A stretch of DNA of 15,950 bases from a virus (Duplodnaviria > Heunggongvirae > Uroviricota > Caudoviricetes): IMG/VR virus record IMGVR_UViG_2657245448_000017; one strand, written 5' to 3'. The notes beneath the pieces were generated by a model, which was not told the DNA's origin, did no database searches, and saw nothing but the letters and a program-made list of their open reading frames with translations. The translations under genes were made by a program, and so were the position numbers. Positions 3,146-5,898 of this stretch are shown piece by piece; position 1 is the stretch's first letter; each line of letters begins with the position of its first letter.

Positions 3146-3532
3146 TCAGGCGGCCGCACCCGCCGGTTCATATCTGCTGATCGTTATCTCTACCCGACCT
3201 TTCGGCACTACGGGTCCCCATTCCACCAGCATGCGCTTAATCTGGCTGTCATCTTCCCAGACACCCGCATGCGTCAGCGCGTCAAACAGGGCTTTGTTGT
3301 AATTATCGATATCCCGGCGGCGCGCATCCGGCGGGTACAGAGTGATTTCTACCGCAGCCAGTTCAGTCGATGGCTTCGGGAGACGTCGTAATTGCTCAAT
3401 GATCGCCACGCAGGCAGCGCTCTGGTATTTACGGCCTTCAGCGCTAATGAGGTGACGACCAGCCAGCGCCCCCTTGTTAGGAGCGCGCCAGTAAGTGTTC
3501 ACGCTGGGTGGAAATGGGAGTATGAGCCTCAT
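3146..3532 (-). CDS. rusA: Holliday junction resolvase RusA
   Basis: 128 aa with the N-terminal PPSVNTYW motif and RRRDIDNYNKALFDALT acidic catalytic region typical of RusA. GGAGG SD six nt upstream of the ATG. Confidence 0.9.
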   Translation of the reverse strand: MRLILPFPPSVNTYWRAPNKGALAGRHLISAEGRKYQSAACVAIIEQLRRLPKPSTELAAVEITLYPPDARRRDIDNYNKALFDALTHAGVWEDDSQIKRMLVEWGPVVPKGRVEITISRYEPAGAAA

Positions 3533-3646
3533 TAAAAGCCTCCGTCATAATTCCTGAAACATACCTCAACTTTCCCGCTATAGTGACGAACACGTTGAAC
3601 AACATCCGAAATAGGCGCTATACCGGCAGGGCGATAAAAGACTGTT

Positions 3647-4969
3647 TCACGCATGAGTTACCCCCTGCATGCTGTCGACAAGACCACGCGCAATTGTGAT
3701 TATTTCGCTGGTGGACATTCGTTCCAGCCAGAGTTGATTGATGTTGGCTTTCAGCTTGTTCTGCTGTGATTCATCCAGCATGTCAGCACCATCCACCTGG
3801 TCGAATACAATTCCAACCTCCAGTGGCCATATACGGGACTCGGGAAGCTGATCGGCTACTGGTTTAGCTTTCTCACGGATGTGCATGCGGATCTGGCGAA
3901 TATTGGACCAACTGGAAACATCCAGGCTTCCCATAGCTGCAATGAAATCAGTACTGTTCATGCCATATTCACCAGATGCTTCAAGGGCAACAGTACGAAT
4001 ACGTTCCGACATATCCAGGCGCGCAGCAGCGTCATCGAATTCAATCGACAACAGCCACTCATCCACACCGAGCAAAATACTCTCACGAATAAGCAGCTTC
4101 GCTTTGTCGATCGTTAATGGTGATACCTGAGTGAATTCCGGTGCTTCGACAGAATCCGCCGCCCAGGTATGCCCAAACTTCGATTCACTGAATGTGTATT
4201 CTTCTTTATCGCCGAACGCAGCTCTAACGCATGCCCACGCCTCAACACCGCTGATATCAAAAATATCTTTCTGGGTAAGTGGCAACTCTGCTTCTGGCTT
4301 GTCAGCTACAGGTGGTGTGGCGGTTGCTGGCTGAGGTTTGCTGGTGGCAAACTGTGCCAAAGCCATAAACGCGCGCCCTTTTGTTTCCAGTTCTGTGCGG
4401 TTGATATAGCTGAATCGCTCGCCACGCCATGACTTATCGAATACAGCTATGGCTCCGGAAAAAAACGCGCTGGTGGGCTTCTGTTTTTCGTCAGCAGGTA
4501 CAAACCACACTGGCAGATCGAAACCAATGCGCCCGCGAATGAATACAATGTGATCGGCATCTTCCGGCCACCACGTTTCACTCGGCGCGGCTTTTATCAG
4601 GAATACATAGCGACCGCCCTTCTCGCGCTGGGTTGCTGCGTACTTCATGATGTGCGTCATACCAGTGATCGCCTGTTTCTCGTGGTACTGCGAGCGGCTA
4701 TATGGAGGGTTGGCAAAAGCCGCGCCACCCAGTTCTGCCAGACGTTCAGACCAGTCCTGCGTCAGTGCGTTATCTTCGGCGGTGTACCATGCCGGGCATT
4801 TCGCGTTGTCGTCGTCAGCAAACAAGTCCAGAACTAATGGACCAAATAGCGCGTTGATACCCCAGAAAAGCAGATCCGGTGTCCGCCACTGATCGCCAAC
4901 TTCTTTCAATTCGTGAGCTGGTTTTGAACGCAGTTCGGCCAGCGCGCGGCAGTATTTGTTTTCAATCAT
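3647..4969 (-). CDS. Phage Dam-like N6-adenine DNA methyltransferase fused to a C-terminal domain of unknown function (about 240 aa)
   Basis: N-terminal WRTPDLLF...LDLFADDDN...NPPY motifs match the phage Dam family. Total length 440 aa is roughly twice the usual size, and the C-terminal half has no motif I recognise. Confidence 0.8.
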   Translation of the reverse strand: MIENKYCRALAELRSKPAHELKEVGDQWRTPDLLFWGINALFGPLVLDLFADDDNAKCPAWYTAEDNALTQDWSERLAELGGAAFANPPYSRSQYHEKQAITGMTHIMKYAATQREKGGRYVFLIKAAPSETWWPEDADHIVFIRGRIGFDLPVWFVPADEKQKPTSAFFSGAIAVFDKSWRGERFSYINRTELETKGRAFMALAQFATSKPQPATATPPVADKPEAELPLTQKDIFDISGVEAWACVRAAFGDKEEYTFSESKFGHTWAADSVEAPEFTQVSPLTIDKAKLLIRESILLGVDEWLLSIEFDDAAARLDMSERIRTVALEASGEYGMNSTDFIAAMGSLDVSSWSNIRQIRMHIREKAKPVADQLPESRIWPLEVGIVFDQVDGADMLDESQQNKLKANINQLWLERMSTSEIITIARGLVDSMQGVTHA

Positions 4970-5898
4970 CCTCTGAATCCCTCTGGAATTTTGGTATCTA
5001 CCGGGCCGAACTTCATCGGGTCATGTTTCTTCTCGCCCCAGCTTTCACGAGGGGGACGGCCTTTCTTATCCCAGCGGAGCCCGCTTTGCAGATAACCCTC
5101 AAATTTTTTCGGCCCAAACAGAGTTTCAGGCCGCATGTACTGATACTGCGCGTCATTGCCGTTCCAGTGTTCATGCTTGAGGTCAATCACCAGCGTTAAG
5201 TCGCTGACGGTATAACCTTCACGCAGACGGGCACGTATGTTTTCCAGAGAGGTTTTAGATTTCTGGTACCGGGAGCCGCTTACCTGGTTCAAATGAGTTA
5301 AAACCAGGATGGCGTTATCAGTGATCAACACCTCAGGGTCTGGTTGCGGCGCAACCGGACAAGAGGGGTTAATGATCTGTTTGTGGTGATCTGAGTAATG
5401 ATCTGTATAGAGAATAGGTTCCGCGACTTCGCGGTTAGGGTTCCGCGATTCTGCGTTTTCGGTTCCGTGATTCTGCGGAATAGGTTCCGCGACTTCGCGT
5501 TTCCCGTTCCGCGATTCTGCGGAATCCAGCGTTGCCGGGAATAAAACATTGATTAGCGCTTCGCCATTGATACGGTAATGCGTCTTTTTCGTGCCGTTTA
5601 CCTGTCGCTGCGCCTTTTCAACAACCCCTGGTAGCCAGCGGGTACAAATCTTGTTTACCAGGCGCTGCACCTGATCTTCACTCACGCCGCGAATCTCTGC
5701 CGCAAGCTCGCTGTGCTCTTTATAAAACCAGCCATCATTCAGATCTGATTTACCAGACCAGAACACGAGCTGGTTTAGCACAGCGCCCAAAGCATGCGCC
5801 TGCTGATCGCCGGAGAAATAATCGAGGTACGGGACCGGAATGGTGATGCTATTCCTTTGCCCCGACAGCGATTGAACGATTTCAAATATCTGGCTCAT
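4966..5898 (-). CDS. Replication initiation protein, lambda O-like, with conserved phage C-terminal domain
   Basis: 310 aa. C-terminal region (DNAILVLTHLNQVSGSRYQ...YTVSDLTLVIDLKHEHWNG...) resembles the conserved C-terminus of phage replication initiators. Five iterons lie in the middle of the gene, as ori-lambda does within O. Confidence 0.7.
   Translation of the reverse strand: MSQIFEIVQSLSGQRNSITIPVPYLDYFSGDQQAHALGAVLNQLVFWSGKSDLNDGWFYKEHSELAAEIRGVSEDQVQRLVNKICTRWLPGVVEKAQRQVNGTKKTHYRINGEALINVLFPATLDSAESRNGKREVAEPIPQNHGTENAESRNPNREVAEPILYTDHYSDHHKQIINPSCPVAPQPDPEVLITDNAILVLTHLNQVSGSRYQKSKTSLENIRARLREGYTVSDLTLVIDLKHEHWNGNDAQYQYMRPETLFGPKKFEGYLQSGLRWDKKGRPPRESWGEKKHDPMKFGPVDTKIPEGFRG
5417..5522. 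repeat. Five direct iterons with exact 22-bp periodicity (candidate origin of replication)
   Basis: Copies of GGTTCCGCGA(C/T)T(T/C)(C/T)GCG begin at 5417, 5439, 5461, 5483 and 5505. Each contains an inverted CCGCGA..TCGCGG element, and both flanks are AT-richer. They encode a repeated AESRN..REVAEPI peptide in the O-like protein. Confidence 0.65.

Follow-up and report, generated by a model that had tools for sequence, protein, structure and literature searches.

Prophage-borne orphan methylases are a main route by which phages escape restriction, shape bacterial methylomes, and are usually annotated from the catalytic domain alone. One such gene, in a 15,950-nucleotide (nt) stretch of caudoviricete DNA (IMG/VR record IMGVR_UViG_2657245448_000017; the whole stretch is here called the window), raises the question of what that practice overlooks. 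A single ATG-initiated open reading frame (ORF) on the minus strand at 3647..4969 (ORF listing) encodes a protein of 440 amino acids (aa) whose C-terminal half lies beyond an N-terminal Dam domain. This extra sequence comprises two portable, conserved modules outside all domain libraries, here termed B and C. Among sampled relatives the second, a short tail, invariably accompanies a widespread family of large phage C5-cytosine methyltransferases (C5 MTases), offering a testable idea for coordinated DNA modification.

A phage Dam protein with two mobile C-terminal modules

The N-terminal part matched the Pfam Dam profile (PF05869; aa 19-199, E=9.6e-45, 152.7 bits against a cutoff of 28.1) and the NCBIfam equivalog TIGR01712 (phage_N6A_met; aa 16-196, 205.5 bits, cutoff 97.05), and PADLOC returned an MTase_II match on the same domain. 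The catalytic (D/N)PPY motif was intact, as NPPY at aa 87-90 within FANPPYS (aa 85-91, window 4697-4715). Judged by sequence and gene order, the product is a predicted orphan, prophage-borne, Dam-family N6-methyladenine (m6A) DNA methyltransferase of the replication-to-Q operon of a lambdoid prophage. Characterized phage Dam members of the PF05869/TIGR01712 type methylate GATC, and by that family precedent the 440-aa protein most likely works in this phage simply as a Dam-type methylase.

A sequence-only reading of the locus had proposed just such a Dam-like methyltransferase with a long, uncharacterized C-terminal extension, and this was borne out, no known Dam accessory domain matching the extension. 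The last ~235 aa gave no Pfam match even at E<=10 (three C-terminal fragments) and no NCBIfam, PDB sequence or PDB profile match, and 41 alignment members gave no consistent Pfam match at E<=1. The further claim that the extension carries no recognizable motif holds for curated domain libraries but not beyond them, the last ~65 aa being covered by phrog_111, phrog_16025, and PADLOC PDLC03332, labeled only with a generic 'DNA methyltransferase'. phrog_111 aligned over aa 2-440 (E=1e-102), with the tail on profile positions 256-345, placing the protein in the Dam+tail family, while PDLC03332 matched it in two stretches, module B being an insertion extra to that family.

The proposal of one 240-aa C-terminal domain did not survive comparison of architectures, which resolved instead a linker and two modules that occur separately in other proteins. 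When aa 191-440 were searched against 5.8 billion proteins, most of the 625 matches were 293-aa Dam proteins sharing only the last ~70 aa, and a few proteins of 400-440 aa shared all of it; an exhaustive search of 1.84 billion cluster representatives with a B+C profile found only 63 representatives, and a search with the 65-aa tail alone returned fragments only and was uninformative. Dam domains (A) were found as A+C (293-297 aa), A+B2+C (P0010), A+B1+B2 without C (P0019), and A+B1+B2+C, B1 and B2 being sub-parts of B. Module B was also found at the C terminus of ParB-like proteins, both in P0124, P0128, P0129, and P0131, which have an HTH_ParB domain, and in gp48 of phage AH07. The tail, with the motif WPxEV...Q..LK.HINR.WLE...II..A..L, ends Dam, MT-A70, N4/N6, and class-I-like S-adenosylmethionine-dependent methyltransferases and also forms many stand-alone proteins of 84-140 aa. 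The C-terminal half is thus two independently mobile, all-helical modules joined to the catalytic domain by a flexible linker. Where Citrobacter prophages with matching gene order carry a 63-nt linker, a stretch of 504 nt (3842-4345) in the window encodes linker and B. Module B looks like something gained by insertion between Dam and tail, and not like a remnant.

From an alignment of 41 sequences, AlphaFold2 modeled aa 229-440 as ten helices (mean predicted local distance difference test score, pLDDT, 91.5; predicted template-modeling score, pTM, 0.59), the pTM being consistent with two modules without a fixed relative orientation; a single-sequence model of the full protein was unusable (pLDDT 36). 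Module B of the window has an isoelectric point (pI) of 4.55 and a net charge of -11. Across the family, B has a median pI of 5.0 and net charges of -1 to -11, and tails are near neutral (median pI 6.0). The near-invariant polar residues of B are S263, H267, D272, R323, N356, R358, and R361, and a conserved face of the tail is made up of W381, E384, Q403, N411, and E416. On these models, acidic-to-neutral helical bundles would fit protein-protein interaction better than classical DNA-binding domains, against which they argue.

Several homologs depart from this plan. In three proteins (P0147, 505 aa; P0149, 469 aa; P0158, 333 aa) a divergent B-like module is followed by a different ~90-aa extension (…DLMPxxNQLVGYVR…) in place of tail C, so the Dam family has more than one kind of tail. 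P0015 (405 aa) is an in-frame chimera of Dam, B1, and part of B2 with the C-terminal motifs of a C5 MTase (…QGFPDGY…GNAVPPP…), and looks like the deletion product of an adjacent Dam-B-C/C5 gene pair; P0011 and P0017 are obvious internal-deletion derivatives.

Tail C adjoins the start of a C5 MTase gene

In all seven stand-alone tail genes examined, a gene for a C5 MTase of 615-731 aa (PF00145) lies directly 3', with a 4-nt overlap or a 2-nt gap. A C5 gene likewise follows MT-A70+tail and class-I-like+tail genes, the Citrobacter Dam+tail gene (8-nt overlap), that of phage phiNP, and, in phages Eeyore and Phi06_2987 S, the complete Dam-B-C genes. Overall it was directly downstream in 18 of the 22 fetched tail-containing loci, the exceptions being the window, Nissle, phage LLS, and ST64B.

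The association was examined reciprocally in 80 IMG/VR contigs encoding C5 relatives, of which 78 had upstream sequence and were counted. In 78/78, a tail-coding sequence ends between -8 and +8 nt from the C5 start. The carrier of the tail changed from contig to contig: Dam in 51, Dam+B in 3, MT-A70 (PF05063) in 13, a class-I-like enzyme in 4, N6_N4_Mtase (PF01555) in 2, and a stand-alone tail in 5. The tail was therefore fused to an enzyme C terminus in 73/78, and B was present in only 3/54 Dam+tail carriers. Since the tail was always there while its carrier varied, it is, across these enterobacterial phages, the constant partner of the C5 gene and its attachment is the variable part. The stop/start overlaps imply translational coupling and hence near-equimolar synthesis.

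The C5 enzymes form one family (56-76% mutual identity, N terminus MREIIVDNFAGGGG) of variable length (575-731 aa). Among the genes compared (L006, L007, L009-L014, and L017-L025), the central regions are internally repeated and align with one another at two offsets (e.g., L013 vs. phiNP), which suggests that target-recognition modules have been duplicated, as they are in multispecific phage C5 methylases. These large proteins themselves match positions 270-320 of the 324-position Pfam DNA_methylase profile; tail C has no PF00145 match and no C5 MTase motif (Pfam at E<=10 and E<=1).

The window retains the tail and lacks the C5 gene

No C5 MTase similarity was detected anywhere in the window by tblastn, nor any remnant by local alignment. 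The tail is followed by 126 nt of unrelated sequence and then the RusA gene; of the two-gene unit, only the tail half is present in the window, the C5 gene being absent. Homology to C5-bearing prophages is lost 2 nt past the tail stop codon and picked up again 12 nt into the RusA gene, a pattern that reads as a clean absence of the C5 cassette. The relatives' C5 start ATG is kept within the last tail codons (…CATGCGTGA), and its retention is explained by that position.

From this ATG runs a 40-aa ORF (3532-3654, minus; MRETVFYRPAG...) that overlaps the tail stop by 8 nt, ends in TAATG at the RusA start, has no Pfam match, and is probably not a real gene. Its 'MRE' start, shared with C5 methylase N termini, was considered as an independent scar of the deletion and rejected, because the final codons of the tail itself account for 8 of the 10 shared nucleotides.

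The tail itself is intact in the window, with its conserved positions all kept. The ratio of nonsynonymous to synonymous substitution rates (Ka/Ks) for the tail was 0.04-0.22 among the four lineages lacking the C5 gene (window, Nissle, LLS, and ST64B) vs. ~0.06 among C5-bearing ones, and by this measure the tail is under purifying selection despite the missing C5 gene. Between window and Nissle, Ka/Ks was 0.08-0.23 across all modules, including 0.08-0.13 for module B. The last ~17 aa of the tail are wholly different in the two, ending …GLVDSMQGVTHA in the window, as in Citrobacter forms, and …ELVRNMRGEAA in Nissle (window 3650-3700 vs. L001 7275-7320), a difference that marks a site of recombination within the coding sequence of the tail.

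Module B is shared with ParB-like partners of DpdA

In Pantoea phage AH07, gp48 is a ParB-like protein with B at its C terminus (gp48 aa 239-431 are 35% identical to query aa 178-366), and its gene overlaps that of gp49, a DpdA-type transglycosylase of phrog_887 (L003 2125-4199). Locus L016 (4001-6275) also encodes such a pair, its gene order being cro, cII, DUF4222, replication gene, [ParB-B], [DpdA], DUF968, Q, so that the pair fills the slot held in the window by the Dam-B-C gene. The DpdA-like genes after ParB-like+B proteins match phrog_887 at E about 1e-97 (DpdA-type protein of 251 aa); at a third locus with ParB-B (L015), the prophage is degraded and has no DpdA. Because B is carried both by Dam and by ParB-like partners of DpdA, it is common to two different DNA-modification machineries. 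The gene order suggests that the AH07 gp48-gp49 and L016 pairs may be compact two-gene 7-deazaguanine DNA-modification units in the lambdoid nin-region slot. The window itself contains no DpdA or ParB domain.

Candidate roles of the tail and module B

We tentatively favor, at somewhat less than an even chance, the reading that the tail docks onto the C5 methylase or acts as its small subunit and that its fusion to an adenine methylase joins the two enzymes, B being another interaction or oligomerization module. The tail would bind the co-translated C5 MTase, and, being fused to the adenine methyltransferase, would tether both enzymes in one complex modifying replicating phage DNA, the non-covalent counterpart of the single-chain bifunctional phage methylases. 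Module B would serve protein-protein interaction or oligomerization in phage DNA-modification enzymes, and would neither be catalytic nor read DNA sequence. In this phage the tail would be orphaned, keeping a C5-independent role (e.g., self-association) or engaging a C5 methylase from a co-resident prophage.

Several observations count against this docking reading. Adjacency and coupling are equally compatible with a regulator or a chaperone. Fold searches returned no informative relative and so lend no structural support specific to docking. The 80 viral contigs were those nearest (65-87% identity) to one C5 query, and with many near-duplicates among them the independent lineages number well below 78. 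Finally, because the tail is intact and selected in four lineages lacking the C5 gene, it may have a role unrelated to the C5 enzyme.

A more general version, possible but doubtful, holds that the ~60-aa tail is a universal adaptor of enterobacterial temperate phages for a large, probably multispecific C5 methylase, that B is a second adaptor, used by Dam and ParB-like/DpdA systems, and that the window protein, with both adaptors and no partner genes beside it, is a hub recruiting the enzymes of co-resident prophages. The tail would then be needed for activity or stability of the C5 methylase, and fusion to any of four adenine/N-methyltransferase families would yield a two-enzyme complex that methylates replicating phage DNA jointly at A and C.

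The tail, and perhaps B, might instead regulate methyltransferase expression, delaying or limiting a potentially toxic C5 methylase in the manner of a controller protein and surviving in the window as a leftover. The small stand-alone tail gene directly upstream of, and coupled to, a C5 MTase gene resembles the C-protein/target-gene pairs of restriction-modification systems, and prophage methylases are often silent or toxic (PMC12707154; PMC4659465). We consider this unlikely: no helix-turn-helix (HTH) or other DNA-binding family was found for B, C, or stand-alone tails at E<=10, E<=1, or E<=0.01, no HTH regulator was among the top fold matches, and the tail is near-neutral to acidic and mostly fused to an enzyme C terminus, which would be unusual for a dedicated transcription factor.

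The sequence-only reading had listed target specificity, anti-restriction activity, and a further enzymatic function as possible roles of the extension. Two further ideas appear less probable still, and about equally so. In the first, the leading idea of that reading, the modules would work for the Dam domain itself, helping it to bind DNA, act processively, or recognize its target. Their covalent attachment via a flexible linker would suit such a role, as would the fact that phage Dam family proteins are small and are described by some authors as having no separate target-recognition domain. However, B is strongly acidic and the tail is not basic, and both modules sit on catalytically unrelated enzymes, the tail also occurring alone; Dam-specific target recognition is disfavored on these grounds. 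Most PF05869 proteins, including the homologs of Stx phages and chi-like phages, lack the modules altogether, and B is rare even among Dam+tail carriers. According to the second idea, B and/or the tail are anti-defense modules, inhibitors of Type IV (McrBC/McrA/Mrr-like) restriction or DNA mimics, co-encoded because methylated DNA is targeted in some hosts. 5-Methylcytosine (m5C), the product of the C5 methylase, is what McrBC and McrA attack, and the tight linkage of the tail to that methylase, the acidity of B, the persistence of the tail without the C5 gene, and the location of the gene in an early phage operon beside other accessory genes all accord with this idea. Against it, neither module resembled any anti-restriction family in PADLOC, Pfam, or PHROG, there was no structural match to Ocr, ArdA, or other mimics, the tail is only mildly acidic, and linkage to one C5 MTase family with translational coupling suggests a stoichiometric partnership over a trans-acting inhibitor.

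It is improbable that the extension in this phage is a functionless remnant of a Dam-tail/C5 cassette after loss of the C5 gene. The gene is missing, homology breaks exactly at the C5 start, and the window-Nissle tail Ka/Ks (0.22) is the highest of the set; yet there are no frameshifts or stops, the conserved tail residues are all kept, the Ka/Ks values of tail and B given above are low, and B looks acquired. Of these four rivals, the specificity-domain and remnant readings fit the data worst. That the 440-aa ORF is an artefact, two genes fused by a sequencing error or a missed start, as a few database entries starting inside B2 (P0012, P0018, P0122, and P0123) might hint, is refuted by independent full-length orthologs (24 E. 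coli genomes, Salmonella, Citrobacter, and two phages) and by the continuous frame, and those short entries look to have been called on contigs that are truncated or rearranged, for which reason a separately expressed B2+C protein was likewise rejected.

Orthologs, the yfdM/yfdN pair, and annotation

In the probiotic strain E. coli Nissle 1917 the ortholog (WP_001704140.1, 'phage N-6-adenine-methyltransferase', 439 aa) is a single coding sequence with 94% nt identity and the same neighbors, and the same gene is present in 24 other complete E. coli genomes, near-full-length in 23/24. With this continuous frame and full-length orthologs in independent assemblies, the gene is intact, as the sequence-only reading had supposed. 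The Dam-B-C architecture also occurs in Salmonella and Citrobacter proteins, which are the closest full-length relatives, and in phages Eeyore and Phi06_2987 S; the order with RusA downstream is common to the window, Nissle, and Citrobacter prophages. Searched against 5,426 complete E. coli genomes, only ~35% of the window found a match, the best coming from Nissle-type prophages at 93% identity, so the window probably derives from a related enterobacterium.

The suggestion that yfdM and yfdN of the E. coli CPS-53 prophage are a split form of this gene was refuted. K-12 YfdM (91 aa) is 81% identical to window aa 2-90, the only part that it aligns to, and ends just past NPPY beside the yfdL pseudogene, which marks it as a truncated N-terminal Dam fragment. 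YfdN resembles no part of the 440-aa protein (blastp and tblastn), and its gene lies upstream of yfdM, the MG1655 transcription order being yfdO, yfdN, yfdM. YfdN instead shares 69% identity with Sb43 of ST64B, a putative PerC-like activator whose gene stands apart, upstream of the Dam gene in that phage. Members of this putative activator family recur just upstream of the modification-enzyme slot in several lambdoid phages (Table 1) and are absent from the window operon.

Dam-family methylases of this group are often mislabeled 'phosphoadenosine phosphosulfate reductase' in GenBank/RefSeq phage records (NC_004313.1 sb44, PP925821.1 CDS0032, NC_009514.1 dam, and others), a recurrent mis-annotation exposed here. 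The label was apparently transferred from phrog_33262, whose members are fusions of a phosphoadenosine phosphosulfate reductase-like part and Dam, and of which only the Dam part (profile positions 283-490) matches the window protein.

The protein sequence is already in RefSeq and phage records, and the window itself offers an ordinary outcome, a prophage Dam methylase in a standard lambdoid early operon. In the searchable literature on the Nissle ortholog, phiNP, yfdM/yfdN, and phage Dam C-terminal domains, we found no description of B, the tail, or tail/C5 coupling; modules B and C and the tail/C5 linkage thus appear undescribed, and most of the interest lies in the family-wide coupling and less in the window gene.

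Genomic context

The gene stands in a lambdoid early-right operon with the minus-strand order cII/YmfL-like, DUF4222, replication gene, Dam-B-C gene, RusA, Ant, DUF968, Q (Table 1), its start overlapping the stop of the upstream replication-like gene by 4 nt. Promoter and terminator sites in 3400-5100 were no more numerous than in shuffled sequence, so there is no sign of an independent transcription unit.

The replication-initiator-like gene (Phg_2220_C) contains, at 5412-5521, ~six 22-nt direct repeats (core GGTTCCGCGAyTTCTGCG) that also encode a repeated peptide (AESRNGKREVAEPI / AESRNPNREVAEPI). The array looks like origin iterons embedded in an initiator gene, by analogy with lambda O.

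Table 1. Positions of the modules, of neighboring features in the window, and of PerC-like genes in related loci
Feature	Position	Strand	Basis
Whole gene, 440-aa Dam-B-C protein	3647..4969 (stop codon 3647-3649)	minus	One ORF; phrog_111 over aa 2-440; Nissle 1917 ortholog is one coding sequence
Module A, Dam-family N6-adenine methyltransferase, aa 1-205	4355..4969 (NPPY 4700-4711)	minus	PF05869, TIGR01712, PADLOC MTase_II, YfdM
Pro/Ala/Thr-rich linker, aa 206-232	4274..4354	minus	Sequence; length and sequence vary among homologs; highest Ks of all segments vs. Nissle
Module B, acidic, all-helical, aa 233-366	3872..4273	minus	AlphaFold2, composition, presence on ParB-like proteins, Ka/Ks
Sub-parts of B: B1, aa 233-283 (GVEAWACV..FGHTWAADS); B2, aa 284-366	within 3872..4273	minus	
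Tail module C, ~60 aa, three helices, aa 377-440	3650..3841	minus	phrog_16025, phrog_111 C terminus
126-nt spacer at the place of the relatives' ~1.9-kb C5 MTase gene, containing most of the 40-aa ORF (3532-3654)	3521..3646	minus	blastn mosaic vs. Citrobacter prophage L021, junction alignment
Upstream neighbor, replication-initiator-like gene (Phg_2220_C)	4966..5898	minus	PF09524, E=9e-24; context only
Downstream neighbor, RusA Holliday-junction resolvase	3146..3532	minus	PF05866, E=2e-16; context only
PerC-like family members	K-12 yfdN, L002 4388-4882; ST64B sb43, L005 1964-2488; AH07 gp46, L003 1575-2009		

Comparison with known systems

The window protein shares with the phage Dam enzymes of PF05869/TIGR01712 (those of HP1, T1, and Stx phages) the N-terminal 205 aa, NPPY, and, as an orphan methylase, a place among the early genes of a temperate phage. 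Typical members end after the catalytic domain, being matched over aa 1-200 only, whereas the window protein continues for 235 aa with B and C. The 293-297-aa Dam+tail proteins of phrog_111/PDLC03332 (Salmonella phage ST64B Sb44, phage LLS gp45, a Citrobacter prophage protein, and the phiNP 'mtase') share with it the genomic slot, a Dam domain at 75-80% identity, and a tail at ~50-70% aa identity (BLASTP; 76-84% at the DNA level). Unlike the window protein, they lack module B, and most have the C5 methylase next to them that the window lacks. The A-linker-B-C arrangement is shared with Nissle, Eeyore, and Phi06_2987 S, the latter two being ~67-75% aa identical. The Nissle tail runs straight into RusA, whereas the Dam-B-C genes of Eeyore and Phi06_2987 S overlap the gene of a 645-aa C5 methylase by 8 nt.

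In the DpdB/DpdA 7-deazaguanine pair, the ParB-fold ATPase DpdB is required for DpdA to insert preQ0 into DNA (PMC10164549). AH07 gp48/gp49 and L016 resemble it in the order of a ParB-like gene followed by a DpdA-like one, the ParB-like partner carrying B. With the window this pair shares module B only, as the ParB part of gp48 matches nothing there and no HTH_ParB match was found.

The C5 methylase M.EcoHK31I needs a small, separately encoded second polypeptide of ~60 aa (PMC2836561), and this combination of an alpha and a small beta polypeptide is a conceptual precedent for the tail as a docking or small-subunit module. The beta polypeptide supplies catalytic motif IX, which tail C does not; the large C5 enzymes have C-terminal motifs of their own, and this sets the tail apart from the EcoHK31I type. 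In Dmt of bacteriophage P1, adenine and cytosine methylase activities are said to reside in one polypeptide, whereas here two separate proteins would be bridged by the tail, with the cytosine partner missing in the window. Likened by description only, P1 Dmt and the tail/C5 systems would share a temperate-phage strategy of uniting m6A and m5C methylation in one unit (P1 dmt appears in PMC12707154).

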